From NCBI RefSeq assembly GCF_000025945.1, contig NC_006138.1, forward strand, positions 2,040,001-2,072,000: a stretch of 32,000 nt of DNA. Reading direction: 5' to 3'. The notes beneath the pieces are model-generated. The model did no database searches and had not been told where the DNA came from. It saw only the letters and a program-made list of their open reading frames with translations. The position numbers and the translations under genes were made by a program. Positions 807 through 30,508 of the stretch are shown one piece after another (the first letter of the stretch is position 1; the number at the start of each line of letters is the position of its first letter). This DNA is from Desulfotalea psychrophila LSv54 (lineage in GTDB: Bacteria; Desulfobacterota; Desulfobulbia; Desulfobulbales; Desulfocapsaceae).

Positions 807-2086
807 GTGGAGCTACCCGCCCTTTTCTTGCCCTGCTGGAAATGACGATGCTTGGCCAATATTTCCGTTAAGTGTACTACCTTAATCGTTGAACCCGCCG
901 AGGCAACGGCACTGCGCCACTGCATCAGGCAGCCGGAGCAGGTGGTGGTGATGATATCAGGGTTAAGGGCCAGGACCTTATCTCTCAGATCGTCACGGAT
1001 AGCAGTGGATATTTTCATCGCCGCAAGGGAAAACAGGCCTCCCATGCCACAGCACTGGGGGCCATCTGCCAGTTCCACCAGCTCTATTCCGCTACATTCT
1101 TTGAGTAGCTTACGAGGTTCATCGACGATATTCAGCTCGTTGCGGAAATGACAGGGGTCGTGGTAAAATACCCGTAGATTCTTTTGTTCGTTTACTGCCT
1201 TCTCTTCGCTCTTTTTCTCGTCCTTTTTCAAGGTCTGCAAAAATTCAGTCAGCTCGACACAGCGTCCGCTGATCCGTTTGGCCCGTTCCTGCCATGCCTT
1301 CTCATCTGCGAAAACATTTTCCAGGGAGTGCAGTTGGAAGAAGCAGGAGGCGCAGCTGACCAGAATCGGTCCCTCTGTTTTTTCTAAGGCGATAATGTTT
1401 TTTTCTGCAAGCCTTCTTGCCCCGGCCAGATCTCCAGCAGAAAAGGCACTGAGCCCACAGCAGGAAAGTCCTGTCGGCACCTGAAGACTGTAGCCTAGGG
1501 TGGCAAAGAAACGACGGTGTTTCTCCAGCAGGGCAGGGGTGATATAGCTGGTAGCACAACCGGGAAAGTAAAGCAGTGGCTGGAGATCAGGGTCTGTAGG
1601 CAACGGGCAGGGGGCTGTCGCCTCCGACTCTTTACTGTCTGTCAGATGATCTTCACTTAACATGGCCAGACGCAGGCGTAGGCCACTCTCGGCAGGTAGT
1701 CCTTTGGCTAGTAATCTGTCAAGGTGCAGAGCAATCTTGCGTAGGTGGACAAGCATTTGAGGGCGTTCAAGCGCTTTGCCTGCCAAGTATTTTTTGTAGC
1801 CACCCGGTATTACAGTGATTTCACTACGTACCTGCCGGACATGGGCAAGGGTGTCGATTCCCCGAGGGCATACCTGCGAGCAAGCACCACAGAGCAGGCA
1901 TTTGGAGAATATATCTTTAACGTCGGCGCCCGAGGCATCTTCCCCTATTTTTTGCAGGTGTTGTCGGCCGCGGGAAGAGTAAAATTCTTTGCCACCACTT
2001 GCCCTGTAAACAGGGCAGACCACTGTGCAGGCACCACAGCGGGCGCACTCTTTTTCCGGCCCTTTTTTTGTCTGCCCTTTTTTCAT
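803..2086 (-). CDS. (Fe-S)-binding oxidoreductase subunit, GlcF/LutA/HdrD-like (2x[4Fe-4S] ferredoxin motifs plus two CCG domains)
   Basis: CARCGACTVVCP and CLLCGACSQVCP cluster motifs; FPGC..CCGLSAF and YHDPC..CCGMGG cysteine-rich CCG repeats. Its ATG overlaps the prfB stop (TAATG). Confidence 0.8.
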   Translation of the reverse strand: MKKGQTKKGPEKECARCGACTVVCPVYRASGGKEFYSSRGRQHLQKIGEDASGADVKDIFSKCLLCGACSQVCPRGIDTLAHVRQVRSEITVIPGGYKKYLAGKALERPQMLVHLRKIALHLDRLLAKGLPAESGLRLRLAMLSEDHLTDSKESEATAPCPLPTDPDLQPLLYFPGCATSYITPALLEKHRRFFATLGYSLQVPTGLSCCGLSAFSAGDLAGARRLAEKNIIALEKTEGPILVSCASCFFQLHSLENVFADEKAWQERAKRISGRCVELTEFLQTLKKDEKKSEEKAVNEQKNLRVFYHDPCHFRNELNIVDEPRKLLKECSGIELVELADGPQCCGMGGLFSLAAMKISTAIRDDLRDKVLALNPDIITTTCSGCLMQWRSAVASAGSTIKVVHLTEILAKHRHFQQGKKRAGSST

Positions 2087-3196
2087 TATTTTCCCCAGAG
2101 TAGGAAGGCCTTGATAAAGCCATCGAGACCGCCGTCAAGTACAGCATCGACATTACCTGCCTCAAAATCTGTACGATGATCCTTAATTAGACGATATGGT
2201 TGCAGTACATAGGAACGAATCTGGCTTCCCCAGGAGATGCCCTTCTTCTCGCCGTGCAGTCCTTCCTGCTGATCTGCTTTTTTTTGCTTTTCGAGCTGAT
2301 ATATCTGGGCAATAAGCATCTTCATTGCCATCTCTTTATTGCGATGTTGAGACCTTTCATTTTGGCACTGGACAACAACGCCGGTCGGCAGATGGGTTAA
2401 ACGAATTGCCGAGTCGGTCTTATTTACATGCTGACCACCTGCGCCACTGGCACGATAGGTATCTACCCGCAGATCTTTTTCGTCGATATCAACATCAACC
2501 GTATTATCGAGTTCTGGCATGACCATCACCGAGGCAAAGGAGGTGTGGCGTCTGCCACTGGTGTCAAAGGGAGAGATCCGTACCAGGCGATGGATGCCAA
2601 GCTCTGAACGCAGATAACCATAGGCCCATTGCCCCTTGATCAGAATGGTAATACTCTTGGTACCTGCCTCATCACCGGGGAGTAAATCAAGGATCTCGGT
2701 CTTAAATTTATGGCGTTCCGCCCAGCGCAGATACATACGTAGGAGAATATCAGTCCAATCCTGGGCCTCGGTTCCACCGGCACCTGCGTGGATAGAAATA
2801 ATGGCGTTGCAGCTGTCATGTTCACCGATGAACATGCACTCCAGCTCGATGGCGGCCAGGGCGTTGGCAAAGCTCCCTAGCTTCAGCGCAATTTCCTGCT
2901 CAATTTCCTGGTCACCCTCTTCGGCGGCCATCTCAAGAAGCATTTCACTCTCTTCGAGGTCGTCCCACTTATTCTGCCAGCCTTTAACTTTATCCTGAAT
3001 CTGGCCATGCTCTTTTTGTATCTTTTGGGCAGTGGCAGCATCATTCCAAAAATTGGGGGCAAGGGTCTGACGTTCCAGCTCTTCTAGTTTTTCTATAAGA
3101 TGAGCTAAGTCAAAGATGCTCCTTCAAGGCCTGCAGTCTGGCCCTCAGTTCAGTGATTTTTTGTTTAGAGACCGCTGCTCCATCATCAATAGCCAT
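2086..3196 (-). CDS. prfB: Peptide chain release factor 2, made from two frames by programmed +1 frameshift
   Basis: The 285-aa ORF carries SGAGGQHVNKTDSAIRLTH (GGQ) and RF2-typical SPF (ISPFD). Upstream frame: ATG at 3196 (RBS GGTGGAAGG), 28 codons, then CTT TGA C. Reading GAC in +1 joins seamlessly to ..DLAHLIEKLEELERQTLAPNFWND... Total about 369 aa. Confidence 0.93.
3109..3123 (-). promoter_or_regulatory. RF2 autoregulatory +1 frameshift site (internal SD-like AGGAG, then CTT TGA C)
   Basis: The minus strand reads AAG GAG CAT CTT TGA C. In-frame TGA is at 3110-3112, slippery CTT at 3113-3115 and AGGAG at 3119-3123. Architecture matches the E. coli prfB site. Confidence 0.9.
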
Positions 3197-15063: not shown

Positions 15064-15094
15064 TTGACATTCCCCTACAGGGTAAAGGTATCTT
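15064..15094 (+). promoter_or_regulatory. MerR-type promoter P1 (TTGACA, 19-bp spacer with CCCT-ac-AGGG dyad, TATCTT) upstream of the DMT permease operon
   Basis: The 19-mer TATTGACATTCCCCTACAG (15062-15080) is identical to 18144-18162. An over-long 19-bp spacer is the hallmark of MerR-activated promoters. Confidence 0.55.
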
Positions 15095-15181: not shown

Positions 15182-16270
15182 ATGGGGCAAACATCTGCTG
15201 CACCAAGTCTTGTTGCTGTTGCAGCGAAAAAACAGCTTGATTCCAGTTTTAGACGAAGAGGGATTACCATAGCATTGGCTTCAGGCCTATTTTATGGATT
15301 TTACACTGCTTTTATGACACTTGGTATGTCTAAAGGTATTTGGCTTGAGTGGTATGGTTCGCAGTCAAATTTATCAGCCTTTGCCGTTATGTATCTCCTC
15401 AGTGCCCTGGGCGCCGCCACCACGGATACCTGCAGTGCTCTCTGGGCTGTCTCTTTTGCAGTACTCAGAGGACGTTTTGGTGATTTTACCCGCTGCATAA
15501 GGACAAAACCGGGTATGGTAATGGTTGCGGCTGCTATCATAGGTGGGCCACTGGCCAGTACAGCCTATGTTATAGGACTTCAGCTAGCAGGATCCATTGT
15601 CGTGCCCATAGCTGCCCTCTGCCCTGCCTTTGGCGCAATAATTGGTCACTTTCTTTTTAAGCAAAAATTAACAGCGCGTATTATGCTGGGAATAGCAATT
15701 TGCTTTGCCGCCAGTTTCCTTATTGGTAGTACAGGGCTTGGTGCTAATGTTCCGGATAATCTCTTTCTTGGTCTCTTCTTCGGTTTGGCTGCCGCAGTTT
15801 TCTGGGGTATAGAGGGATGTATCTGTGGCTATGGAACCTCAATGATTGATCCTGAAATAGGAATTACCATTCGCCAGGTAACCGCTGGTTTTTCAAATCT
15901 ATTTATTCTCGTGCCCCTCTTTGGCATAATTGCTCAGGTAGATAGCTTTGCCATGGTGACCCAATCTTTTACCGATGGTGGTTCGATTATCTATTTTGCC
16001 ATTGCCGGATTGTGTGCCTACCTGACATTTATGTACTGGTATAAAGGTAATGGCATGTGTGGTGCTGCCCTTGGCATGTCCTGTAACGGAACCTTCTCTT
16101 TCTGGGGTCCTTTTTGTTGCTGGATTGTTTTGGGTATTGTTTTTGGCATTGAGGGCTGGTCCATGCCTCCGATAGCTTGGGCTGCGGCCATTCTTATGGT
16201 TATTGGTATTTTTATTATAGCAATGAACCCCTTAGATCTGTTTAAAAAAAGTAATCAGGAGACAGCATGA
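15182..16270 (+). CDS. 10-TM permease, drug/metabolite transporter (DMT/EamA-GRP-like) superfamily; candidate substrate importer for the cut locus
   Basis: 362 aa, about 10 hydrophobic segments in two halves. GGPLASTAYVIGLQLAGSIVVPIAALCPAFGAIIGHFLFKQKL is an EamA-like repeat. RBS GAGGAGAG. Confidence 0.65.
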   Translation: MGQTSAAPSLVAVAAKKQLDSSFRRRGITIALASGLFYGFYTAFMTLGMSKGIWLEWYGSQSNLSAFAVMYLLSALGAATTDTCSALWAVSFAVLRGRFGDFTRCIRTKPGMVMVAAAIIGGPLASTAYVIGLQLAGSIVVPIAALCPAFGAIIGHFLFKQKLTARIMLGIAICFAASFLIGSTGLGANVPDNLFLGLFFGLAAAVFWGIEGCICGYGTSMIDPEIGITIRQVTAGFSNLFILVPLFGIIAQVDSFAMVTQSFTDGGSIIYFAIAGLCAYLTFMYWYKGNGMCGAALGMSCNGTFSFWGPFCCWIVLGIVFGIEGWSMPPIAWAAAILMVIGIFIIAMNPLDLFKKSNQETA

Positions 16271-16533
16271 TTCCATTAAATTACGCCATCTTGAAATTTT
16301 TTACCAAAAATGATGATGCATCAGCTGATTGTGTTATGAGTGCCTTGCAGGACCAGTACGGTCACTATAAGGCCTTCAAAAAAGGCTCAATCATCAATGC
16401 CATAATGACAGCCGAGGCCAATGGTCTTCTTGAAGAGGCTAGATTAGAGCTTGATCCTAGTCAAGAGCTGAAGGTTTATTACAGGGCCCATGAAGAGGGC
16501 GCTGCAACAATAAACAAGTATATCAAGGGTTAG
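16267..16533 (+). CDS. 88-aa soluble protein of unknown function, possibly a small winged-helix fold
   Basis: ATGA overlap with the permease stop implies translational coupling. ..NAIMTAEANGLLEEARLELDPSQELKVYYRAHEEGAATINKYI resembles the wing region of PadR-like proteins, but weakly. Confidence 0.45.
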   Translation: MIPLNYAILKFFTKNDDASADCVMSALQDQYGHYKAFKKGSIINAIMTAEANGLLEEARLELDPSQELKVYYRAHEEGAATINKYIKG

Positions 16534-16550
16534 TAGAATATTCAGTGTCG

Positions 16551-16577
16551 GTGAGTCTCCTCTTGCAGGAGGCTCAC
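16551..16577 (+). terminator. Hairpin after the permease operon (weak terminator)
   Basis: GTGAGTCTCCT-cttgc-AGGAGGCTCAC, 11 bp including one G-U pair. No strong T-tract. Confidence 0.35.
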
Positions 16578-16996
16578 TGGCTCTGTCTGTAGAACCAGAG
16601 AAAAAAATCAGTACCGTTTCTCTCTGTAGGATACCGCTCAGATTAGAGTGGTTTGTAACACCCTGCATTAGAAAGTTATTCTCCCTAGTAAAACCTATCC
16701 TCTCTATTCTCCCCCCTTATTTGTCCAATTTTGAGCTAACAGCTAGGCTGTTTCAGGGTCTCTTATGAATTTGTTTGAGGTGAGGCGAGGTCTATGCATT
16801 TATTTTTCGTCTCTTGACATACGAGAAAGTATCTGTTCCAACAGGAGTTGGATATGATATTTTATTGTTGTCCTTCTCTCAGCGGTCAGAGTGTTTATTT
16901 GGCGACAATACGAAGAGATGGGTCTCTTGTTCTGTCCTGCTTATTGTGCTAGCCCAGCCTTGAATATTGACCGATCCATAAGAGGGATAAGAGAGT

Positions 16997-17848
16997 ATGA
17001 GTCACAAAAAGAAATATTTCATAGGAGATATGAGTAAGATATGTAATTTGTCAAAAAAGGCTCTTCGATTTTATGACAAAATAGGCATAATTCCATCTCA
17101 TAGGCATGACTGTAATAATTACAGGTACTATACCAGTGAATCACTGTTGGCCGTTCCGGTAATAAAGTACTATAAGCAGATGGGGTTTACTCTGGAAGAG
17201 ATGAAGGAGTTTATCGAAGGCAAAGACCCTAACGTTTTTAAGAGTATAAAAAAATCCTTTTTGAATAAAATTAAATCATTTGAAGAGGAGCAGGAGAAGA
17301 TTGAGCGGAAACATATTGCCGTTAAAGACTGGTATGAACTCATTTTGGAAGCTGAGACGGTTATTGAGAACAGTATATCCGATGTTTCCGTTAAGTACAT
17401 CGATAGCGCAGAGCTATTATGTCAGGAGCAATACTATGAAAAAGATATAAAGGCCTCCATTGTCAATATTGACTTTACAAATTATGTCGAAGAGCTGGAT
17501 AACGAGATAACCGGGCCGGTAATAATCTATTTTTCACCCCTGCAAGATAGAATTGAAAATCGGCCACAGGCAATTAAGATTCTGCAAAAAACAATAAAAA
17601 CCTGTAGTAAGAAGAACAGGGAAACATTCGGTGGCTGCATGATGGCTTCCTGTTACCATATAGGTTCGCATGATACGATCCAACAGACATATCAAAAAAT
17701 ATGTAAATGGGCCGGGCAAAATGGTTATGTTCTGGGCAAAGGCTCCTATGAACGGTATGTTACAGATTACTGGACCACGCGGAACACCTCTAAGTTTATC
17801 ACTGAGATATTAATCAAGGCGACCAGAATGAGAGAGGCTATTCAGTAA
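16997..17848 (+). CDS. MerR-family transcriptional regulator with a C-terminal GyrI-like effector-binding domain (BmrR-like architecture)
   Basis: N-terminal YFIGDMSKICNLSKKALRFYDKIGIIPSHR..NYRYYT is a MerR HTH, followed by a coiled-coil linker. C-terminal ..ASCYHIGSHDTIQQTYQKICKWAGQNGYVLGKGSYERYVTDYW is GyrI-like. Confidence 0.85.
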   Translation: MSHKKKYFIGDMSKICNLSKKALRFYDKIGIIPSHRHDCNNYRYYTSESLLAVPVIKYYKQMGFTLEEMKEFIEGKDPNVFKSIKKSFLNKIKSFEEEQEKIERKHIAVKDWYELILEAETVIENSISDVSVKYIDSAELLCQEQYYEKDIKASIVNIDFTNYVEELDNEITGPVIIYFSPLQDRIENRPQAIKILQKTIKTCSKKNRETFGGCMMASCYHIGSHDTIQQTYQKICKWAGQNGYVLGKGSYERYVTDYWTTRNTSKFITEILIKATRMREAIQ

Positions 17849-17911: not shown

Positions 17912-17938
17912 CTTCCCCTATAGGGGAGGTCGTTTTTT
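17912..17938 (+). terminator. Intrinsic terminator of the MerR gene; its stem is a perfect CCCCTATAGGGG palindrome resembling the P1/P2 operator
   Basis: CTTCCCC-tata-GGGGAGG stem-loop, then tcgTTTTTT. TTCCCCTATAG matches TTCCCCTACAG in P1 and P2 at 10 of 11 positions. Confidence 0.6.
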
Positions 17939-18145: not shown

Positions 18146-18177
18146 TTGACATTCCCCTACAGTGGAGACCTTATAGT
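18146..18177 (+). promoter_or_regulatory. MerR-type promoter P2 upstream of the BMC/cut operon
   Basis: TTGACA, then a 19-nt spacer ttcccctacagtggagacc, then TTATAG (or a 20-nt spacer and TATAGT). Shares the 19-mer with P1. Confidence 0.55.
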
Positions 18178-18267: not shown

Positions 18268-18879
18268 ATGGGGTATCACGTTGACGGGGCTTTAGGCTTA
18301 ATTGAAACTCTTGGAATGGTTCCTGCCATTAGTGGCGCGGACGCTATGCTGAAAACAGCTGATGTCACCTTGGTTTCCTATGAAAATATTGGCTCTACTC
18401 TGGTGGCTGTGATGGTCAAGGGAGATACTGCGGCAGTTCAGGCTTCGGTGGATGCGGGGGCCAAGGCTGCGGCCAAAGTAGGCCAGGTTACAGCGCAAAA
18501 TGTTATGCCCCGCCCTGTTCGGGAGGTGGATGCTATTGCTGCCGTTCACGGTATAGACAGATCTGAGGCGGTCAGCGGGTCGCGACCAAAATCCATGGGC
18601 TTTGTTGAGACCTTTGGCATTGTTTTTGCCCTGGAAGCAATCGATGCCATGGTTAAGGCTGCCAATGTAGAGGTTATCGGCTATGAGAACGTCGCCTCGG
18701 GATATATATCCGTATTAGTTGAGGGTGATGTCGCTGCCTGCCAGGCCGGCGTTGCTGCAGGCGTTCAGGCTGTTGAACGGATGGGTGGAGAGGTACATAG
18801 CTCTCTTGTTATCCCCACCCCTCACCCTGATATAGAGCTGATAACCAGGACCTATGCCTTGGATAAACTTTTACCCTAG
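18268..18879 (+). CDS. BMC shell protein, fusion of two canonical PduA/J-like BMC domains (tandem)
   Basis: Two repeats of the BMC-H signature: ALGLIETLGMVPAISGADAMLKTADVTLVSYENIG..VAVMVKGDTAAVQASV and MGFVETFGIVFALEAIDAMVKAANVEVIGYENV..ISVLVEGDVAACQAGV. Confidence 0.85.
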   Translation: MGYHVDGALGLIETLGMVPAISGADAMLKTADVTLVSYENIGSTLVAVMVKGDTAAVQASVDAGAKAAAKVGQVTAQNVMPRPVREVDAIAAVHGIDRSEAVSGSRPKSMGFVETFGIVFALEAIDAMVKAANVEVIGYENVASGYISVLVEGDVAACQAGVAAGVQAVERMGGEVHSSLVIPTPHPDIELITRTYALDKLLP

Positions 18880-18951: not shown

Positions 18952-20454
18952 ATGATTGTTGACAACGATTTACTCTCCGTTCAAGAGGCCAGAATTCTGG
19001 TTGAGGATGCTTTTGAAGCCCAAAAGAAATTGGCAACATTCTCCCAGGAAAAGCTGGATGAGATTGTTGAAGGTATGACCCGGGCTGTTGAAGGTCAGCT
19101 TCGGGATCTTGCCCAGATGTCTCAAGAAGAAACCGAAATTGGCAAATGGCAGGACAAGCATATCAAGAACAGCTTTGTCTGTAGCTATAGCCGTAGCCAT
19201 CTGCGCTATATGCACTGTGTTGGTGTTATTGGTGAAGACCCGATGAACGCCATCACCGAGATAGGGGTCCCCATTGGGGTTATTGTATCCACCTGCCCTG
19301 AGACAAGCCCTGTCTCTACAGCTATATATAATACACTTATTGCCATTAAGTCCGGCAATGCCATCATCTTCTCTCCCCATCCCAGAGCCCGACAGAGTAT
19401 TGGCAAAACCCTGGATATTATGAGAGAGGCGGCTCAGGCCCATGGGCTTCCCGAGGGCTGTCTGGCTTATTTGCAGACCGTAGATCATAGTGGTCTTCTG
19501 GAGTTGATGAACCATGACTGCACCTCACTTCTTCTTATTGGTGGAGATGAAATCTTACTGCAGACCGCAGCTGGCACAGGTAAAACCATCATCTATGGTG
19601 GTACCGGAAACGGACCGGCCTTTATAGAACGCTCGGCCGATATTGAACAGGCGGCACGAGATATCATTGCCAGCAAATCCTTTGATAATGGTATTGCCCC
19701 GGCGGCAGAACAGTCTCTGGTGGTGGATGCTCCGGTGGCAGAAGATGTACGTCGGGCAATGAAGAGAAATGGGGCATATTTTATGTCCGAGCAGGAGGCT
19801 AGTCAGCTCGTTCAGATATTTTTTACCTCCGCCGGCAAGCATAAAAAGGGAGTTGTTGGTATCTCGGCTCAGAGGCTTGCCCAACGGGCCGGTTTTATCG
19901 TGCCTGCAGACGTGACCCTCCTCGTGGCTGAGCGTAAATATGTCTCCGAAGCCGATCCCTACTATCGTGCCTTTCTTGCCCCCGTTCTTGCCATGTATGT
20001 GGAAGAGGACTGGATGGATGCCTGTGAAAAATGTATAGAACTTCTTCTCTATGAGAAAAAGGCCCACTCTCTGGTTATTCACTCTTGCAATAAAGAGATT
20101 ATTCATCAGTTCGCCCTGAAAAAACCGGTGGCCAGACTCTTGGTGAACACCCCGGGAGCCTTTGGTGGCATGGGTGCAACGACCAACCTCTTTCCCTCTA
20201 TGATGCTGGGAAGCTCCTCCGCTGGACACGGTGTTACCTCTGACAATGTCTCACCCTTAAATCTTATCTATAGGAGAAAGGTGGGCTATCAGGTCAGAAG
20301 TATGGAGGAAGTAAAAAAAACAATAATGGTCGAGGAACCCCTTCGCCATGTGAGCAGTACCCCGATAGAAAGTAATGATTCAGTGACGGTGGAGGTAATA
20401 CATCAAATCCTGAAGAAGGCGATTAAGACCATAAATGACCCCGCCGCTCATTGA
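18952..20454 (+). CDS. AdhE-type (CoA-acylating) aldehyde dehydrogenase homologue, apparently lacking the catalytic Cys and Asn; C-terminal amphipathic helix
   Basis: Aligns along its length with the AdhE N-terminal domain (NAIIFSPHPRAR, GGTGNGPAFIERSADI). The active-site block reads SKSFDNGIAPAAEQS where AdhE has SKTFDNGVICASEQS. TNPTST is replaced by TSPVST. Confidence 0.8.
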   Translation: MIVDNDLLSVQEARILVEDAFEAQKKLATFSQEKLDEIVEGMTRAVEGQLRDLAQMSQEETEIGKWQDKHIKNSFVCSYSRSHLRYMHCVGVIGEDPMNAITEIGVPIGVIVSTCPETSPVSTAIYNTLIAIKSGNAIIFSPHPRARQSIGKTLDIMREAAQAHGLPEGCLAYLQTVDHSGLLELMNHDCTSLLLIGGDEILLQTAAGTGKTIIYGGTGNGPAFIERSADIEQAARDIIASKSFDNGIAPAAEQSLVVDAPVAEDVRRAMKRNGAYFMSEQEASQLVQIFFTSAGKHKKGVVGISAQRLAQRAGFIVPADVTLLVAERKYVSEADPYYRAFLAPVLAMYVEEDWMDACEKCIELLLYEKKAHSLVIHSCNKEIIHQFALKKPVARLLVNTPGAFGGMGATTNLFPSMMLGSSSAGHGVTSDNVSPLNLIYRRKVGYQVRSMEEVKKTIMVEEPLRHVSSTPIESNDSVTVEVIHQILKKAIKTINDPAAH

Positions 20455-20478: not shown

Positions 20479-23019
20479 TTGGATCTTCAAAGTTTTTCTG
20501 AAAAACTCATAGTAGCAACCAAAAACCTTAATGCTGCGGAGCGCGCCTCCCTGAAAAAGATCTTCGATGGTGATTCCACCGAGATTGCAGAGGACAAGAA
20601 TGTGCCATCGGCTCATCTCTCTGTAGACCCATGTGCTATACCCAATGGGCCTACTGATCGACATATAAAGCTTAAGAAAAAATTCCTTACTCACGTGCCC
20701 ACCATCACCACCCATCGGGCTCGGGCCATCACCAAGATTGCTCAGGAAAACCCAGGATTGCCCAAGGCTATTCTGCGCGGTAAATCCTTTAAGTACTGTT
20801 GTGAAACGGCACCCCTGGTAATCCAGGATAATGAGCTCATCGTTGGTTCTCCCTGCGGTGCTCCCCGGGCCGGTGCCTTCTCGCCAGATATCGCTTGGCG
20901 CTGGGTTAAGGATGAACTTGATACCATCGGCACTCGTCCTCAGGATCCCTTCTTTATCTCCGAAGAGGATAAAAAGATCATGCGCGAAGAGCTCTTCCCC
21001 TTCTGGGAAGGCCGATCCATTGATGAGTATTGTGAGCAGCAGTACCGCGAAGCGGGTATGTGGGAACTCTCCGGTGAATCCTATGTTACCGATTGCTCTT
21101 ATCACGCCACAAATGGCGGTGGTGATTCTAATCCTGGCTACGATGTAATCCTGATGAAAAAGGGTATGCTTGATATCGTCAGGGAGTCTCAGGAGAAGTT
21201 GGCCGAACTGGATTATGAAAATCCCGATGATATGGATAAGATCTATTTTTATAAGTCTCTTATCGATACCGCAGAAGGGGTAATGATCTACGCCAAGCGT
21301 CTCTCTGACTATGCGGCCCAATTGGCAGCCAGTGAGAAAGATCCCCAGCGTAAGGCAGAACTTGAGAAGATCTCAGCTGTAAACGCCCGGGTTCCTGCTC
21401 ATAAGCCCGAGACCTATTGGGAGGCTATTCAGGCAGTCTGGACCGTTGAATCTCTTCTTATCGTTGAAGAGAATCAGACAGGCATGTCCATTGGTCGTGT
21501 TGATCAGTATATGTACCCATTTTATAAGGCAGATATTGAAGCAGGACGCATGACCGAGTATGAGGCCTTTGATCTCTCCGGTTGTCTGCTGGTGAAATGT
21601 TCCGAGATGATGTGGATCACCAGTGAGGATGCCTCCAAGTTCTTCGCTGGCTATCAACCCTTCGTCAATATGTGCCTGGGCGGGGTGACCCGCGAGGGTC
21701 TTGATGCCACCAATGATCTTACCTACCTCCTTATGGATGCCGTTCGTCATGTTAAGGTTTATCAACCCTCTGTGTCCACCCGTGTTCATAACCAATCTCC
21801 TCAGAAGTATCTGAAGAAGATTGTGGATGTGATTCGTGCCGGCATGGGCTTTCCCGCCATCCACTTCGACGATGCCCATATTAAGATAATGCTGGCCAAG
21901 GGCTGCTCCATTGAAGATTCCCGTGATTATTGCCTCATGGGTTGCGTAGAGCCTCAGAAGTCTGGTCGTCTCTATCAGTGGACTTCCACCGCCTACACCC
22001 AGTGGCCCATCTGTATTGAGATGGCTCTCAACCACGGAGTGCCTCTCTGGTACGGCAAGCAGGTCTGTCCTGATCTTGGCGCCCTGGAGTCCTTTGATAC
22101 CTATGAGAAATTTGACGCGGCCGTTAAGGAGCAGATCAAGTATGTGACCAAGTGGACCAGTGTCGGTACCGTTATTTCCCAACGCATTCACCGGGATCTG
22201 GCTCCTAAACCTCTTATGTCTATGATGTACGAGGGTTGTATGGAGTCCGGTAAAGATGTCTCGGCAGGCGGTGCTATGTATAACTTTGGCCCCGGTGTTG
22301 TCTGGAGTGGCCTTGCCACCCATGCCGACTCCATGGCAGCTATTAAAAAACTGGTCTTTGATGACAAGAAGTACAGCTTGACCCAGCTTAATGAAGCCCT
22401 AAAGGCCGAGTTTAAGGGCTATGACCAGCTGAAGGCCGATTGTCTTGCCGCTCCTAAGTTTGGTAACGATGACGATTACGCTGATCTTATCGTTAATGAT
22501 CTGGTGAACTTCACCGAGCGGGAGCATCGTAAGTTTAAGACCCTCTATTCGGTTTTGAGCCATGGTACCCTCTCCATCTCTAATAATACGCCATTTGGTC
22601 AACTCCTTGGTGCTTCAGCCAATGGTCGTGATGCCTGGATGCCCCTCTCCGATGGTATCAGCCCTACCCAGGGTGCTGACTTTAAGGGGCCCACCGCCAT
22701 CATTAAGTCCGTATCGAAAATGCCCACCGATAGCATGAACATCGGTATGGTGCATAACTTCAAGCTGATGTCCGGTCTTTTGGATACACCCGAAGGTGAG
22801 AACGGTATCATCACCCTGATCCGTACTGCCAGTATGATGGGTAACGGTGAGATGCAGTTTAACTATCTCGATAATGACACCCTGCTTGATGCTCAGTTAC
22901 ATCCTGAAAAGTATCGTGATCTGGTGGTTCGGGTTGCCGGTTACAGTGCCTTTTTTGTTGAGCTGTGCAAGGATGTACAGGATGAAATTATCAGCAGAAC
23001 CATGTTGACTGAAATTTAG
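20479..23019 (+). CDS. cutC: Choline trimethylamine-lyase (glycyl radical enzyme), TTG start
   Basis: 846 aa. RVAGYSAFF puts the radical Gly at residue 821; GCVEP gives C489/E491. By my own residue count, Y208, D216, F395, T502 and Y506 fall at the numbering I recall for the Desulfovibrio alaskensis CutC choline pocket. RBS GGAGGAAG. Confidence 0.93.
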
Positions 23020-23067: not shown

Positions 23068-24000
23068 GTGGCAGAAAGAAAAGCACATATATTTAATATC
23101 CAAAAGTATAATATGTACGATGGCCCCGGGGTGAGAACCCTGGTCTTTTTCAAAGGGTGCCCTCTTCGTTGCCTGTGGTGCTCGAATCCCGAAGGACAAC
23201 TGCGCCAGCCTCAGGTTTTGCTGAAGCAGGATCGCTGTATTGACTGCGGTGACTGTGTCCCGGTTTGTCCCGTTGGCATTCATCGTCTCCTGCCTGGTAG
23301 TAAAAAGCATGAGATAAATCAGAAGATAGAGTGCATAGGCTGTGGGAAGTGTGAGGCGGCTTGCAAGCAGGGGGCCCTTGCCATCACCGGTGGTTTGCAG
23401 ACTATCTCTCAGTTGCTTGAGGTGATTGAAGAGGATAGGCCCTTCTACGAGATGTCTGGTGGAGGGGTTACCCTTGGCGGAGGTGAGGTGTTGATGCAAC
23501 CGAAGGCTGCGGCAAGTCTTTTGATGAGCTGTAAGCAGAGGGGAATTAATACCGCCATTGAAACCTGTGGCTATGCCCGTCCCGAGGTGATCAAGAGTGT
23601 TGCGGAGTTTACAGATCTCTTTCTTTTTGATATCAAACATATGAACTCGGAAAGACACCGCGAACTGACCGGGGTGCGTAATGAGCTTATTCTCAGCAAT
23701 GTCCAGTGGCTTCTGGAAAACCGATTTAACGTCCGGATCAGGGTACCGGTTCTGAGAGGAGTTAATGACGGTGAGACGGAACTGGCTCAGCTGATAGATT
23801 TTCTCCGGCCATATCTTGGCTTGAAGAATTTCAAGGGAGTTGATATTCTCCCCTATCATAAAATGGGTGTTAATAAATACAGGCAGTTGGGCTGGGACTA
23901 TCCCATCGAGGGTCCCGTTGAACTAAATACTGCTGATCTGGAACGTATTGAGAGCTATTTTAAACTAAATAATTTTCCGGTATCGGTGATTCAGCACTGA
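23068..24000 (+). CDS. cutD: Glycyl-radical enzyme activating enzyme (radical SAM), GTG start
   Basis: GPGVRTLVFFKGCPLRCLWCSNPE (CX3CX2C), plus two ferredoxin-like motifs CIDCGDCVPVCP and CIGCGKCEAAC. Lies immediately downstream of cutC. Confidence 0.9.
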   Translation: MAERKAHIFNIQKYNMYDGPGVRTLVFFKGCPLRCLWCSNPEGQLRQPQVLLKQDRCIDCGDCVPVCPVGIHRLLPGSKKHEINQKIECIGCGKCEAACKQGALAITGGLQTISQLLEVIEEDRPFYEMSGGGVTLGGGEVLMQPKAAASLLMSCKQRGINTAIETCGYARPEVIKSVAEFTDLFLFDIKHMNSERHRELTGVRNELILSNVQWLLENRFNVRIRVPVLRGVNDGETELAQLIDFLRPYLGLKNFKGVDILPYHKMGVNKYRQLGWDYPIEGPVELNTADLERIESYFKLNNFPVSVIQH

Positions 24001-24039
24001 TGTCAGGGCTGACCTTATCTGTTGCAAAATAGGGGAAAT

Positions 24040-24609
24040 ATGAAGAAGAATCAGGAAATTGATACATTAGGTGTTGTTGAGTCAGCAACCATTGCTGCCG
24101 GGGTGGCCCTGACGGACACCATGTTAAAGGTTGCCGATGTTGAGTTGCTTCAGGCCACGACCATCTGCTCCGGTAGATATATGATCTATATTTCCGGCGA
24201 TTGTGCTGCGGTTACTGCTGCGGTTCAGGCAGCAGAAGGGTCGGGGCGTAAAATACTCGGTAGCTATGTCCTCTCAAACGTTTCCCCTGAACTGGTCAGC
24301 TTTTTGCGTAAGGGGACCGTCGTTAAAGAGGTTGAATCCCTAGCCGTTGTTGAATGCCGCAATGTCTCTTCTGGCATTGCCGCCGCCGATAAGGCCCTGA
24401 AGAGTTCCGCAGTCTGTTTGGCTCGACTGGTTACAGGTCAGGGGATTAACGGTAAATCGTATTTTGTTATCAGCGGAGATGTTGCCTCCGTTGGAGAAGC
24501 GGCAAAGGTCGCAGAGTCCGTTTTGGGCAAAAATCTTATCGAGGTAGTTATTATCCCCCAACCCCACGCCTCGGTGGTAAGGTCTCTGGTAAAAGGGGTG
24601 AGGTTATAG
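24040..24609 (+). CDS. PduT-like tandem BMC shell protein
   Basis: Aligns with PduT as I recall it (LGVVE.., TTICSGRYMIYISGD retaining the pore Cys, second domain LAVVECRNVSSGIAAADKALKSS.., VIIPQPH). ATG 24040 with RBS AGGGG is preferred over the TTG 24022 in the ORF track. Confidence 0.85.
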   Translation: MKKNQEIDTLGVVESATIAAGVALTDTMLKVADVELLQATTICSGRYMIYISGDCAAVTAAVQAAEGSGRKILGSYVLSNVSPELVSFLRKGTVVKEVESLAVVECRNVSSGIAAADKALKSSAVCLARLVTGQGINGKSYFVISGDVASVGEAAKVAESVLGKNLIEVVIIPQPHASVVRSLVKGVRL

Positions 24610-24969
24610 ATGAAGAAAAAACTTGTTGAAGCGAGCAATGTAGAGTCCTATCTGTGCGAAAATGGCACTAAGATTTATATTGATAAGAGCATGGTCTTAA
24701 CTCCGGGCGCCCGAGATGTATTGAATGGCAGAAGAGTTGAATTTATCTATGGAGAGCGGCCGGGCTCTGAAGGCTCTCTTGCGACGATCCTGAAGGGCTG
24801 TGCCTCAGCAAATGCCTTTTCGGCAGTTGCCGGCAATGAAAATGGCGATTATGAAAAGTTTGTCCTGGGTATAGGGGCAATGCTTAAAGACTCTTATGGG
24901 ATTGTCGATCCTGCTGAGCGGAAGAGATACACCAAGAGGGCCATCCAGATAATCAAAGAGAATATCTAG
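24610..24969 (+). CDS. 119-aa protein of unknown function embedded in the BMC operon
   Basis: ATG directly follows the PduT-like TAG, with RBS GGTGAGG. The N-terminal ..KSMVLTPGARDVLNGRRVEF resembles a short motif I recall from several BMC-associated proteins. No confident family call, and it is not EutN-like. Confidence 0.45.
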   Translation: MKKKLVEASNVESYLCENGTKIYIDKSMVLTPGARDVLNGRRVEFIYGERPGSEGSLATILKGCASANAFSAVAGNENGDYEKFVLGIGAMLKDSYGIVDPAERKRYTKRAIQIIKENI

Positions 24970-25031: not shown

Positions 25032-25391
25032 ATGTCTGAAATATCAAGAGAGCCAAAACAGCGAATTATTCAAGAGTATGTCCCGGGAAAGCAGATCAGC
25101 CTTGCCCATCTCATTGCCAGCCCCGATAAGAGCATCTATCTTAAACTGGGCTTGGATGAGGAGGCCAGCGGGGCCCTTGGGGTACTGACCATAACCCCGA
25201 GCGAGGGGGTTATCGTTGCCTCGGATATTGCCACCAAGGCGGCCTCTGTTGAGATTGGCTTTCTTGATAGGTTTGGCGGTTCACTTCTCCTCCTCGGTGA
25301 TGTGGGTGGTGTCGATGCTGCCCTGCAGGCGGTTTTGGATTATTTTGGTAATACCCTGCACTATTCGGTGGTGGAGATGACCCGGACCTAA
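25032..25391 (+). CDS. PduU/EutS-type (circularly permuted) BMC shell protein
   Basis: [74 protein letters not shown] matches the PduU sequence I recall ([53 protein letters not shown]). Confidence 0.88.
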   Translation: [119 protein letters not shown]

Positions 25392-25476: not shown

Positions 25477-25897
25477 ATGAAAAAAATGATGCTGATAGGC
25501 GAGACTCATGCCGGTAAGAGTTCTCTGATCAAGGCCCTCTCCGGGCAGGAGTTTCAGCCTCGCAGGGCCATGGCCCTGCAGTACTTTGGCCCCTTTATCA
25601 ACACTCCGGGAGAGTTTATAGAAAACCACTTTTTCTTTCCCGCCCTGATAACCACCTCGGCTGACTGTCATGTCCTGGCCATGGTTCAGGATGCAAGTAG
25701 CCGGAGCAGTCTCTTTCCACCCCTCTTGCCTCGATGTTCAACCGCAGGGGGTCGGGCTGATCACCAAGATTGACAGTCCCCATGCCAATGTCGAGCGAGC
25801 CAAACTCTTCTTAAAAAACGCCGGTATCAAAGAGACTCTCTGCTGTAGCAGTATAACGGGGGCCGGATTGGAAGAGATTCGTCAGCTGATCCAGTAG
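25477..25897 (+). pseudogene. EutP/PduV-family small GTPase, interrupted by two apparent 1-nt frameshifts at homopolymers
   Basis: P-loop MLIGETHAGKSSL and INTPGEF are in frame 1. LASMFNRR is in a second frame and VGLITKID..GAGLEEIRQLIQ* in the third. The switches coincide with C4 (25720-25723) and G5 (25747-25751). Adding one base to each gives a 140-aa EutP-like protein. Confidence 0.72.
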
Positions 25898-26388: not shown

Positions 26389-27510
26389 TTAACCTAGAGC
26401 TCGATAGTTGAGTTCATATTTCTTGGCATCATCTTCCTTAAGAAGATTCTTTTCTAACAGTTTTTTGATATCCCTTCTGGCTGTCTGTTCGCTCGCCTTT
26501 TGGTAGAGAATTTTAAAGGGATAGTTGTCCATCAGGTCTTTAAGGGTAAAGGCAATGGGATTATCCAGCAGTAAAGAGAGCAGGGCAAACTGTCTTTTGC
26601 TTATTGCCCTGTTTTTCTGTTCATGGGTGTAAAAATCTCTTAGGGCAAATCTTCTGATCAGAAAGGTTATTGACTCTTTTATATCCATGAGGCTTTCCAC
26701 TACCCCTTCAAGCATAAACTGGATAAAGGGGGTGACATCTTTTCTGTTTTTAATGCTTTTGGAAAATGCTGCATAGTAATCATCTACATTTCGATAGTAG
26801 TAGTTTGAGAGTTCTTTCGGAACGTATTTTATATTGGCAGAATGGAGAAGGCATGATTCAAGAAATCTGGCAGTTCTGCCATTGCCATCCCAAAAAGGAT
26901 GGATGAGGCAGAGATGATAATGGGCCAGTGCTGCCCTGAGAAAGGGGTTGAGACCTAAAATTTCTTCGCTGTTGAGCCAGGCCACGAACTCTTTCATGAG
27001 CATTTTTACATCTGCCAGTATTTTAGGTGGTCTGTATACGCCACCGTGCCCTTTGTCGCCGACAATAACCTCACCATTTCTATAGGCCCCTGGAATATTG
27101 TACTCATGTGGAATTTCCGTGGTAATGATCCTATGCATGGTTTTGATAAAATCTTCACTAACAATCAGGGGGCCATTTTGAGGCTCCATCTCCGAGAGTA
27201 TCTGGTATAGGGAGAGTAGGTTTTTGATCTCCTGCTTATCCTTTTGGGTGTAGAGAGGCATCTCTTCACCGGCCGCGATCTTTTTGACCCCCTCCTCTTC
27301 AATGGGATTTCCCTCAATCATGGCTGTTCCGGAAATAGAGCTATACATGATCTTTGGATCCAGCCTTGCCGACATTCCGGGAAGAATTGGCAGATCCGTG
27401 ACGGTCTCATAGAGCAGATTGGCCTTAAAGAGCAGGTTATCGACTATGACCATCTCTGTTTCGTGGCAAAAATAAAACTTCCCTGATTTATAGGTTAAAA
27501 TGTCTTTCAT
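26389..27510 (-). CDS. Fic-family protein (class II auto-inhibited type) with a C-terminal winged-helix-like domain
   Basis: HPFWDGNGRTAR Fic motif (26866-26901). N-terminal inhibitory-type motif TAMIEG, i.e. [S/T]xxxE[G/N], at 27310-27327. Start chosen at MKDILTYK (27510, RBS GAGAGGG). The longer ORF-track N-terminus runs through the repeat/promoter. Confidence 0.85.
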   Translation of the reverse strand: MKDILTYKSGKFYFCHETEMVIVDNLLFKANLLYETVTDLPILPGMSARLDPKIMYSSISGTAMIEGNPIEEEGVKKIAAGEEMPLYTQKDKQEIKNLLSLYQILSEMEPQNGPLIVSEDFIKTMHRIITTEIPHEYNIPGAYRNGEVIVGDKGHGGVYRPPKILADVKMLMKEFVAWLNSEEILGLNPFLRAALAHYHLCLIHPFWDGNGRTARFLESCLLHSANIKYVPKELSNYYYRNVDDYYAAFSKSIKNRKDVTPFIQFMLEGVVESLMDIKESITFLIRRFALRDFYTHEQKNRAISKRQFALLSLLLDNPIAFTLKDLMDNYPFKILYQKASEQTARRDIKKLLEKNLLKEDDAKKYELNYRALG

Positions 27511-27521
27511 TTTGCCCTCTC

Positions 27522-27618
27522 TTTTGTCATAGAAAATGTAACAACTTAAATCAATTATATTAATAGCTTGCAGTGTGCCGGCGTTTTTTTCTGATAAAGA
27601 AAATGTAACAACTTTCGT
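27522..27618. repeat. ~97-bp direct repeat, copy B (Fic promoter/operator region)
   Basis: Contains two identical 17-nt boxes AGAAAATGTAACAACTT (27531-27547 and 27598-27614). On the Fic strand a TTGATT-17-TATGAC promoter overlaps box 1. Confidence 0.9.
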
Positions 27619-27677
27619 CATGAAAGTAATCATCTTTTTTGTCCCCTCCTCGTAGCACTCGAATTTATCTTGGGAGC

Positions 27678-27694
27678 GCGGACGTCTCGTCCGC
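27678..27694. repeat. GC-rich perfect hairpin GCGGACG-tct-CGTCCGC
   Basis: 7-bp perfect stem in an intergenic segment upstream of Fic. Single copy in this window. Confidence 0.5.
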
Positions 27695-27855
27695 AAAGCT
27701 TGCCATCCTGTAATGCCCAATTTGATTAGCCTAATTATTTCATCAAAGATGTTTTGGGGCAAGATTGAGCCAAGGGGGATTTAGTGGAGATGGAGAGTCT
27801 GATCGTCTTTGTTGGAGATTCAGGGGTTTTAATTTGCCTCGGCTTTTTTAGAGAA

Positions 27856-28838: not shown

Positions 28839-29915
28839 ATGAAAAAAGTTAAGAACAAAATGCAATATAATCGGTTATCAAAAAGACGATTTGAAAAAAA
28901 AATAAAGAGAAAAAAACATAAAAAAGAGCTAATAAAATTAGCTATACAACAAAAAAAAAGCATTTTGAATGTAAAAAGAAATAAATTAAAATTACATAAA
29001 AAAGCAAATGCTGAAGACTTTATCGAACTAAAGCCACCATCGCATTTTAGTATTATTGAGAACCCAAATGAAACTTTAACTTTTTTTGAAAGTTTAGAAA
29101 GTAACCTTCTTAACTACGATCCAATTTATATTAACATGTCGGAAATAAGCAGAATGACTGTAGATGCATTGTTATATTATATTTCAATTTTACAGCATAT
29201 TAAAACAAAGCTTAGTGCCTATATTTTAAAAGGTTCATTTCCCGAAGATGAAGAAACTTTAACATTGATGAAGCGATCCGGCTTTTTAAGGTATTTTAAA
29301 ACATCTGAAGATAATATTAATACTCATAGAGATTATGTTGAAATAAAAAGTGGTAATATTGCAGATAATCAAGTTGTTAAAGATATATGTCTTTTTGTTA
29401 TGGAGAAAATGAAAGTCGGTAGGGTAAAAACACAAAAATTGTATGATATTATTTTTGAAATGATGTTAAACACAAAACAACATGCCTATAATGCTAATAC
29501 GAATAAATATGATAATTGGTTATTGTTTTTGAAGTTTAATCCGGATAAATCTAATATAGAGTTTATTTTTTTGGATAAGGGCTTTGGTATTCCTCAAACA
29601 GTAAGAAAAAATAAATTAGAAATAGCCGTAAAATGGTTTTCTAAAATAGGGATAACTGAATTTAGCGAGACTGATTTAGTTGATTCAGCATTAAAGGGAG
29701 CATTTAGAACTAAAACGGAAAAAGGATATAGAGGGAAAGGTTTACCTAAAATAAATCAATATTTTGAAAATGGATATATAAAATCATTAAATATTATATC
29801 TAAAAAAGCTTGTATAACTGCAGAAAACAAACATGATTTGGAAAAAGAAATAATCGGTACACTATATTCCTGGAAAATCACAAAGGATAGTATAAATGGC
29901 AACAATAATTATTAG
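28839..29915 (+). CDS. GHKL-superfamily ATPase / RsbW-SpoIIAB-like serine-kinase-type protein with a Lys/Arg-rich N-terminal tail
   Basis: N-box FEMMLNTKQHAY, G1 box FLDKGFGIP and G2 box YRGKGLPKI. The first ~55 aa are extremely basic (KKVKNK..KRRFEKKIKRKKHKKE..KRNKLKLHKK). The middle segment (IYINMSEISRMTVDALLYYISIL) looks STAS-like. Confidence 0.68.
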   Translation: MKKVKNKMQYNRLSKRRFEKKIKRKKHKKELIKLAIQQKKSILNVKRNKLKLHKKANAEDFIELKPPSHFSIIENPNETLTFFESLESNLLNYDPIYINMSEISRMTVDALLYYISILQHIKTKLSAYILKGSFPEDEETLTLMKRSGFLRYFKTSEDNINTHRDYVEIKSGNIADNQVVKDICLFVMEKMKVGRVKTQKLYDIIFEMMLNTKQHAYNANTNKYDNWLLFLKFNPDKSNIEFIFLDKGFGIPQTVRKNKLEIAVKWFSKIGITEFSETDLVDSALKGAFRTKTEKGYRGKGLPKINQYFENGYIKSLNIISKKACITAENKHDLEKEIIGTLYSWKITKDSINGNNNY

Positions 29916-30213
29916 TGAAACATTTACAGATGCACCTGGTGGAAGGTTGCGTTCCGATGGCCCAAAGTCTGGAGAAGAATTCAGAAATGATTTTTTGATA
30001 CCGGTTTTTGACAAGCTAACTGAATCAGAACAGATAACTATTGATTTAGACGGTTGTTTTGGATACGCAACCAGTTTTTTAGAAGAAGTTTTTGGAGGGT
30101 TATCAAGAGAATACGGAGCAAAAAAAGTTTTGGAAAAATTAAAATTTAAATCTGATGAAGAACCTCTTTTAATAACAGAAATTCAGGAGTATATAAAAGA
30201 TGCTTCGAAATAA
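29896..30213 (+). CDS. STAS-like small protein (DUF4325-type)
   Basis: 105 aa. ..QITIDLDGCFGYATSFLEEVFGGL.. follows the STAS-like 'v.lDf.gv...tsSFldE.fg' pattern. Overlaps the ATPase gene by 20 nt. RBS AAGGA. Confidence 0.6.
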   Translation: MATIIISETFTDAPGGRLRSDGPKSGEEFRNDFLIPVFDKLTESEQITIDLDGCFGYATSFLEEVFGGLSREYGAKKVLEKLKFKSDEEPLLITEIQEYIKDASK

Positions 30214-30508
30214 AGTAGGGATTTTTCTTGTTTTTTTAATTTTAGTAATCACCATTGATTTGTTAACAATCAATTTTCTGAAATGGGACTTTCTAAGTGT
30301 TAATTTTTTTAATTGTCGATTAATTGAAATTTTAAGGCTACTTGTAATGATATTTTTAAGTTGTTACGTTGCTTATTGGGTTTCAATTAAAAGTAATGCA
30401 ATTCAAAAAAAGAAGGATCTTTGTTTGGTTTTGATAAATGAGGGTAACTTGATTCTATCAGAACAAAAAGAGTTAACACTTTTCGTTTACACAGCAAACA
30501 AGCAATAA
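30200..30508 (+). CDS. Small membrane protein with two predicted TM helices
   Basis: VGIFLVFLILVITIDLLTINFL and LIEILRLLVMIFLSCYVAYWVSI. Overlaps the STAS-like gene by 14 nt. RBS AGGAG. Confidence 0.55.
   Translation: MLRNKVGIFLVFLILVITIDLLTINFLKWDFLSVNFFNCRLIEILRLLVMIFLSCYVAYWVSIKSNAIQKKKDLCLVLINEGNLILSEQKELTLFVYTANKQ

Follow-up and report, generated by a model that had tools for sequence, protein, structure and literature searches.

What does an aldehyde dehydrogenase (ALDH) do in a choline-utilization locus once it has lost the residues on which its catalysis depends? The question is posed by cutB of Desulfotalea psychrophila LSv54, a gene of the cut locus of this bacterium, which we analysed in a window of 32,000 nucleotides (contig NC_006138.1, positions 2,040,001 to 2,072,000 of the forward strand; all coordinates below are counted from the first letter of this 32-kb window). 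An initial annotation, made from the letters and a list of open reading frames (ORFs), had described the product as an ALDH that looks catalytically dead, the only one of the locus. The answer that we favour, with moderate confidence, is that the gene is an orthologue of CutB, an inert ALDH paralogue of GRM1 loci that would act as an organizer tied to CutC and CutD, here in a locus that has been reduced. The gene and the positions within it on which the argument turns are the following.

18952-20454, + strand: cutB, ALDH-fold protein without catalytic residues, 500 aa (PF00171, TIGR02518, synteny and fold).
19306-19308, + strand: AGC codon of Ser119, which replaces the oxyanion-hole Asn of TNPT (reading of the DNA, phmmer alignments and homologue columns).
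19699-19701, + strand: CCG codon of Pro250, at the nucleophile Cys position (reading of the DNA, phmmer alignments and homologue columns).
19969-19971, + strand: codon of Ala340, at the Glu position of EKLSP, a private change (phmmer alignments and homologue columns).
20377-20436, + strand: residues 476-495, a C-terminal amphipathic helix (VTVEVIHQILKKAIKTI) resembling an encapsulation peptide (AlphaFold2 model and orthologue pattern).

The phmmer alignments of CutB to the solved structures 3k9d and 5j78 and to Escherichia coli AdhE (6ahc/6tqh) are free of gaps around the catalytic motifs, and the residues there can be read off directly. The codons ttt gat aat ggt att gcc CCG gcg gca gaa cag tct give FDNGIA-P250-AAEQS, with P250 opposite the nucleophile Cys of the FDNGxIC(A)SEQS motif in the solved structures. 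Likewise, cct gag aca AGC cct gtc gives P-E-T-S119-P-V, with S119 opposite the oxyanion-hole Asn of P(S/T)TNPTS (PETSPVS in CutB), and the stretch RAFLAPVLA aligns with (R/H)EKL(A/S)PxLA, where Ala340 replaces the Glu of EKLSP. Because both the thiol nucleophile (now Pro250) and the oxyanion Asn (now Ser119) are gone, CutB is predicted to be incapable of forming the thiohemiacetal and thioester intermediates by which acetaldehyde, coenzyme A (CoA) and NAD+ are turned into acetyl-CoA.

These losses are shared by the whole surrounding family. Among the 120 best homologues of CutB (59-67% identity, from Desulfobacterota and Clostridia, in independent genomes and metagenomes), the nucleophile column is occupied by Pro in 66, Ser in 43, Ala in 10 and Val in one and never by Cys, while the oxyanion Asn column holds Ser (112) or Gly (8) and never Asn. 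The orthologues thus share the substitutions, a point that the initial annotation had proposed to check. The third change is of a different kind: 115 of the 120 keep Glu340, and only the D. psychrophila protein has Ala. For comparison we used 77 active relatives, chosen for having both Cys and Asn, in which the Asn column is 100% Asn as that selection entails and the Glu of the E-K-L-x-P block is present in 94%. Since 224 columns in the alignment of the 120 CutB homologues reach 90% conservation or more while Cys and Asn are gone in all of them, CutB appears, from its sequences, to be a family under constraint that gave up its catalytic residues.

The rest of the protein is recognizably that of an acylating ALDH. 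PF00171 is its sole Pfam match (61.9 bits against a cutoff of 23), which places it in the ALDH superfamily, and TIGR02518 aligns with it end to end, CutB residues 4-488 lying against profile positions 1-485. Against the narrower enzyme profiles it stays below the cutoffs, with 501.6 bits for TIGR02518 (curated equivalog cutoff 620.1) and 388.5 bits for the AdhE profile NF010378 (cutoff 951). The AlphaFold2 (AF2) model, built from a 50-sequence alignment, has an ALDH fold with a mean pLDDT (per-residue confidence) of 77 and a pTM (confidence in the overall fold) of 0.75, and a Foldseek search with it returned 3k9d and 5j78 as best matches (TM, or structural similarity, scores of 0.81-0.90; 0.82/0.90 for 3k9d). 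The product is 100% identical to a deposited D. psychrophila protein. What the initial annotation had read from the letters, namely an end-to-end alignment with the AdhE-type acylating ALDH domain, Pro250 encoded by CCG at the nucleophile, Ser119 at the oxyanion Asn, RAFLAP at the E-K-L-S-P block and an appended C-terminal amphipathic helix, stands in every particular; the privacy of Ala340 is an addition to it.

Several lines of comparison identify the gene as cutB. We compared it with four related loci, from Desulfosediminicola (L081), Oleidesulfovibrio alaskensis (L083), Desulforhopalus (L088) and Maridesulfovibrio (L089), and with three more distant ones (L085, L086 and L087; 35-41% identity to the window protein). 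It is 60-62% identical to the CutB of Desulfosediminicola and Oleidesulfovibrio (60% for O. alaskensis), as against 40-42% to the CutF of the same two loci. The second ALDH of these relatives, which we take as CutF, keeps FDNGT(V/I)C-ASEQ and STNPTS in L081, L083, L085, L088 and L089 (FDYGTICASEQ in L085). Since the window protein is far closer to the ALDH encoded upstream of CutC than to this second, Cys-bearing one, sequence comparison identifies the gene as cutB and the second ALDH gene of the relatives as cutF. Its position is also that of cutB: a bacterial microcompartment (BMC) shell gene at 18268-18879 is followed by cutB, cutC and cutD, and the order of shell gene(s), Cys-less ALDH, glycyl radical enzyme (GRE) and activase recurs in 7/7 related loci (35-67% identity).

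When 1.84 billion cluster representatives were searched exhaustively with HMMER and the sequences aligned and placed in a neighbour-joining tree, the window protein fell among the Cys-less sequences. These make up a single clade (33 representatives at 50% identity) that stands apart from the AdhE-, EutE- and CutF-type enzymes with Cys and Asn. In this clade the nucleophile column reads Pro in 30 and Ser, Thr and Val in one each. The clade reaches much deeper than the close CutB orthologues, down to 31-38% identity (L085, L086, L087; P0253, P0254, P0265); Pro is nearly fixed in it at the Cys position, and each member examined lies directly upstream of a CutC-sized GRE.

At the level of residues the finding is already known, and CutB has been described before in choline microcompartment loci. 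The change from Cys to Pro or Ser was reported in three earlier studies (Axen 2014; Martinez-del Campo 2015; Sutter 2021). The first of these, whose data set includes D. psychrophila LSv54 with two GRM1 loci, noted the loss of the Cys and the presumed inactivity of the second GRM1 aldehyde dehydrogenase (AldDh), and suggested a scaffold or regulator role by analogy to defunct enzyme domains in carboxysomes (Axen 2014, PMC4207490). CutB was likewise described as devoid of the essential catalytic cysteine and likely non-functional, while CutF was shown to be the active CoA-acylating enzyme (Martinez-del Campo 2015, PMC4453576), and the loss of the Cys and presumed inactivity were again recorded for the GRM1 AldDh(-) (Sutter 2021, PMC8217296). 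Our literature search found no paper that tests the function of CutB.

The D. psychrophila copy goes further than its family. It departs from consensus at 13 of the 224 conserved columns, keeping 211, where the family mean is 5.3 (sd 3.4), and so ranks second among the 120. T197G and E340A are each unique among them, and V199D, P212T and C261P are rare. When the columns at least 85% conserved in the active relatives are compared, ATGG has become IGGD, GKP has become GKT and the GVGxGN stretch reads YGGTGN in this protein, all of them motifs conserved 85-100% in the active enzymes; the earlier statement that all other structural motifs are retained was therefore too strong. Many residues that are conserved in active relatives are invariant in the close CutB orthologues (K69, K72, T118, P120, T123, K133, N136, G217, G219, N220, K242, D245, H372, R395 and N399). 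In the wider Cys-less clade, by comparison, the ATGG- and GVGxGN-type positions have degenerated, with no consensus at 196-199, E/L in place of K69/K72 in about half, and N220 retained in 42%. We take the ATGG- and GVGxGN-type positions, together with the EKLSP Glu, Thr197 and Pro212, to be linked to cofactor binding in ALDHs. The extra departures of this copy at conserved columns favour a purely structural role over cofactor binding, making the latter the less likely of the two for D. psychrophila CutB, as judged from sequence. In a comparison of three taxa its branch is also the longest (0.33, vs 0.19 and 0.24).

In the tail of CutB an amphipathic helix, VEVIHQILKKAIKTI, comes after a linker that varies. 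AF2 predicts this helix at 476-495, after a low-confidence linker at 460-477, and the conserved pattern xxLxxILKEAIxxL recurs in CutB orthologues, again after a linker of variable sequence. CutF carries a C-terminal helix of its own, AITAMIVEQLKKMA, and type I AldDh enzymes in general bear a C-terminal encapsulation peptide (Sutter 2021, PMC8217296). The modelled tail of CutB fits such a peptide, by which the protein would presumably be encapsulated.

Set beside known systems, the window protein is nearest to the CutB of type I/GRM1 loci (D. alaskensis G20, D. desulfuricans), with which it shares the cutA-cutB-cutC-cutD position, the changes from Cys to Pro and Asn to Ser, the C-terminal amphipathic tail, and the adjoining genes for the same MerR activator and transporter. 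It differs from these in the extra changes E340A, T197G, V199D, P212T and C261P, and its locus differs in having no partner CutF, with cutE to cutK missing. With the CutF/EutE-type I enzymes (TIGR02518; 3k9d, 5j78; the N-terminal domain of AdhE) it has in common the fold, the length, 40-44% identity and a C-terminal extension at the same place, but it is without Cys, Asn and, in this copy, Glu. The comparison with the non-catalytic organizer homologues of carboxysomes, drawn by Axen 2014, rests on an enzyme fold devoid of catalytic residues, a microcompartment locus and a proposed scaffold role; the folds are unrelated to that of CutB.

If CutB is inert, which enzyme of the locus would process the acetaldehyde? 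The genes around cutB bear on this question, and are listed here with the matches that identify them.

15182-16270, + strand: EamA-like membrane protein, 362 aa, putative choline transporter (72-77% to the flanking gene in L081/L083; weak EamA Pfam match).
16267-16533, + strand: 88-aa partner of the transporter gene (71-74% to its positional counterpart of 88 aa in L081/L083; no family match).
16997-17848, + strand: MerR-type choline-utilization activator (NF053782, 503.6 bits against a cutoff of 450; MerR and GyrI-like domains).
18268-18879, + strand: cutA, shell protein with tandem BMC domains, 203 aa (PF00936 twice; about 70% to cutA of L081/L083).
20479-23019, + strand: cutC, choline trimethylamine-lyase, 846 aa (TIGR04394, 1667.8 bits against a cutoff of 1050; 88.7% to CutC of L081).
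23068-24000, + strand: cutD, CutC-activating radical SAM enzyme (TIGR04395, 569.6 bits against a cutoff of 360).
24022-24609, + strand: cutL orthologue, PduT-like BMC-T protein, 195 aa, marking the junction at which cutE to cutK are lost (60-61% to cutL of L081/L083).
24610-24969, + strand: cutM orthologue, 119 aa, no known domain (32-39% to the gene after cutL in L081/L083).
25032-25391, + strand: EutS-like permuted BMC shell protein, 119 aa (NF012012, 114 bits against a cutoff of 123; PF00936 match).
25477-25897, + strand: cutS/eutP GTPase-like gene, split by a frameshift (halves of the EutP profile in two frames).

In Desulfosediminicola, Oleidesulfovibrio, Desulforhopalus and Maridesulfovibrio, cutD is followed by cutE (BMC), cutF (ALDH), cutG (BMC-H), cutH (phosphotransacylase, PTAC), cutI (EutJ-like), cutJ, cutK (EutN), cutL (PduT-like BMC-T), cutM, cutN and onward. 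In the window the cutL orthologue starts 21 bp after the end of cutD (24000), and the seven genes from cutE to cutK, retained in all four relatives, are absent between them. Among these seven are the active CutF, the phosphotransacylase, the EutJ protein, two shell genes and the only BMC-P pentamer. We considered a cutE/cutL chimera at the junction and rejected it, as the alignment of the 195-aa protein with cutL extends over 182 residues and that with cutE over only 55-71 at 35-38%.

No second ORF of the window matches PF00171, and hence no CutF partner is encoded there; nor is an active AldDh, a PTAC, an alcohol dehydrogenase or a BMC-P pentamer found among the window's ORFs. The first, second and fourth of these are present in the same four relatives, whose alcohol dehydrogenase falls outside the flank that was retrieved. 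Of the parts of a complete GRM1/type I locus, the window thus holds CutC and CutD and lacks the core aldehyde enzymes and the pentamer. That cutB is the only ALDH gene of this locus, as first annotated, holds for the window; the gene order of the relatives indicates that a lineage-specific loss, rather than the design of cut loci, is the reason. The new point is that D. psychrophila kept cutB after losing the adjoining active cutF. Further along, the EutP/PduV-type gene cutS is split: positions 1-83 of the EutP profile fall in the ORF 25477-25773 and positions 90-139 in the ORF 25670-25897 of another frame, the frame shifting by +1 somewhere from about 25728 to 25745. The split gene may be either a pseudogene or a product of sequence error, and shows only that an error or mutation exists close by.

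The loss of an aldehyde-processing half returns us to the aldehyde. The suggestion that CutC-made acetaldehyde has no processing enzyme encoded locally is borne out for the window and incomplete for the organism. The supplement of Axen 2014 (PMC4207490) gives two Cys-bearing AldDhs for D. psychrophila LSv54, and we recovered both of these EutE-type proteins (P0121, P0122). They are intact, lie outside the window, carry the motifs PSTNPGST and FDNNLIC-ANEKE, and start with a helix of PduP/EutE targeting type. A search of contigs with the EutE-type AldDh 'B' of that supplement returned relatives only, at 76% identity or less. The closest available relative lies in Halodesulfovibrio aestuarii (L002, 1314-12138), in a full metabolosome locus with an Fe-dependent alcohol dehydrogenase, Pta, a PduS-like flavoprotein, a BMC-T, two BMC-H, EutN and an EutJ-like protein. 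By analogy, that locus may serve as a model for the second microcompartment locus of this species.

How, then, is the retention of an ALDH without catalytic residues best explained? That the substitutions are sequencing or assembly errors in a normal acetaldehyde dehydrogenase, a proviso of the initial annotation, is refuted by the common loss of Cys and Asn in 120/120 nearest homologues and by orthology to CutB rather than CutF, and can be given practically no credence. An enzyme with another nucleophile, such as Cys115, or with another reaction on the ALDH scaffold, seems to us highly improbable. Cys115 does lie four residues before Ser119 and is present in 109/120 homologues, C89, C358 and C361 are invariant, and E253 and H372 are retained; but Cys115 is Ser, Thr or Val in the other 11, the gap-free alignments leave no Cys in the nucleophile column, the oxyanion Asn is gone as well, and a column that tolerates Pro, Ser, Ala and Val does not behave like that of a catalytic residue. 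A module that holds or buffers NAD(H) or CoA without turnover, the alternative to a scaffold offered in the initial annotation, would agree with the many residues of active relatives that are invariant in close CutB orthologues and with the Glu340 of 115/120. The D. psychrophila protein, however, has lost this Glu and reads G197, D199 and T212 in place of the T, V and P of its family, and the same positions are poorly conserved in the wider Cys-less clade. The proposal is weakened for this copy by the loss of Glu340, Thr197 and Pro212, and we judge it rather unlikely.

More weight, if still well short of an even chance, belongs to the possibility that cutB is a relic in a decaying cut locus, its selected function gone and its frame still open. 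The missing cutE to cutK, with the active AldDh, PTAC and pentamer, the frameshift in cutS/eutP, the 13 departures where the family averages 5.3 (E340A and T197G, seen in no other homologue, among them), the longest of the three branches, and the report that the type strain is negative for choline as electron donor (PMC8497536) speak for such a relic. Against it stand a 500-codon ORF that is intact and has AAGG about 10 nt before its start, the 211/224 conserved columns kept, an intact CutC (88.7% identity to the nearest of the relatives compared) and an intact CutD, both exceeding the curated cutoffs by a wide margin, and the presence of the activator gene with its MerR-box-like sites. Moreover, other proteins of the locus are also on somewhat longer branches in the D. 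psychrophila lineage. The phenotype itself is not diagnostic, since Desulfosediminicola flagellatus, with a complete cluster, scored choline-negative too (PMC8497536).

We therefore return to CutB as an inert organizer. Under this reading the protein would be a structural component tied to CutC and CutD, brought into the shell lumen by its C-terminal helix, where it may help to pack or tether the lyase cargo, and any acetaldehyde that CutC makes would fall to enzymes encoded outside the locus, such as the two EutE-type AldDhs of D. psychrophila. The conserved, non-catalytic ALDH fold accords with the first proposal of a pseudo-enzyme and with the published view (PMC4207490, PMC4453576, PMC8217296); the scaffold part of that proposal keeps its conjectural standing. 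Several considerations count against us here. We infer the scaffold role from fold, tail and synteny; the AF2 confidence is low at residues 250-252 (pLDDT <50), which include the nucleophile site, and at 391-432; and with an eroded locus and departures at 13/224 columns, cutB may no longer do anything in D. psychrophila. The choline-negative type strain is a further such point, as are transposon data from D. alaskensis, which mark the genes of the cut cluster, "including aldehyde dehydrogenases", as important on choline; a transposon within cutB would have polar effects on cutC.

The reduced locus also invites a narrower proposal, which we put forward as a conjecture with the odds against it: that D. 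psychrophila is a natural deletion variant which lost the aldehyde-processing half of the locus and kept cutA-cutB-cutC-cutD, and that CutB works with CutC/CutD and not with CutF. If so, CutB would serve the lyase, as argued by the retention of cutA to cutD after the deletion and the invariant adjacency of cutB and cutC across at least seven loci; it might then tether, stabilize or load the GRE into the shell, and the reduced locus might borrow the shell and aldehyde dehydrogenases of the second microcompartment locus. The retention of cutB after the loss of cutF admits two interpretations: either it hints at a service of CutB to the lyase, or it shows a locus caught in the course of decay. 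More generally, CutB is a widespread and conserved pseudo-enzyme of the microcompartments that make trimethylamine from choline. To the published picture we add that the Cys-less proteins form one deep clade, next to CutC in every case examined, that the positions aligned with cofactor motifs erode across this clade, and that one genome keeps CutB without CutF.

The regulatory side of the cut locus looks intact from its sequence. The MerR-type activator at 16997-17848 is the orthologue of D. alaskensis Dde_3291, for which the operator motif TTCCCCnnnnGGGGAA has been described (PMC4045070). Scanning the window for this motif gave 7 matches, vs 2.3 expected by chance, and three TTCCCCnnnnGGGG-like boxes stand in the two promoter regions of the locus, those of the transporter gene and of cutA:

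15070-15085, unstranded: MerR-box-like palindrome upstream of the transporter gene, TTCCCCTACAGGGTAA, 1 mismatch to the operator motif (motif scan).
17913-17928, unstranded: MerR-box-like palindrome upstream of cutA, TTCCCCTATAGGGGAG, 1 mismatch (motif scan).
18152-18167, unstranded: second MerR-box-like site upstream of cutA, TTCCCCTACAGTGGAG, 2 mismatches (motif scan).

The module of transporter, 88-aa and MerR genes (15182-17848, +) lies on the strand of the operon in the window and is divergent in Desulfosediminicola, Desulforhopalus, Oleidesulfovibrio and Maridesulfovibrio, an orientation that suggests an inversion in the D. psychrophila lineage.

Some features of the window lie apart from choline utilization. 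The ORF for release factor 2 at 2086-2943 (- strand), with PCRF and RF-1 domains, aligns from profile position 57 onward, as would be expected if a programmed prfB frameshift splits off its N-terminal part; a simple pattern search for the prfB shift site gave matches at chance level only. No tRNA gene was found in the 32-kb window. A gene for a Fic-domain protein (26389-27762, - strand), which matches the single-gene SoFic defence model of PADLOC with an E-value of 4e-48, follows directly on the truncated cut locus. Beside it is a low-GC block at 28839-30508 (+ strand; GC 0.29-0.31 at 29-31 kb) that has the look of a horizontal acquisition; it encodes a 358-aa protein devoid of a family match and a DUF4325 (STAS-like) protein, and also holds an ORF of 102 aa.

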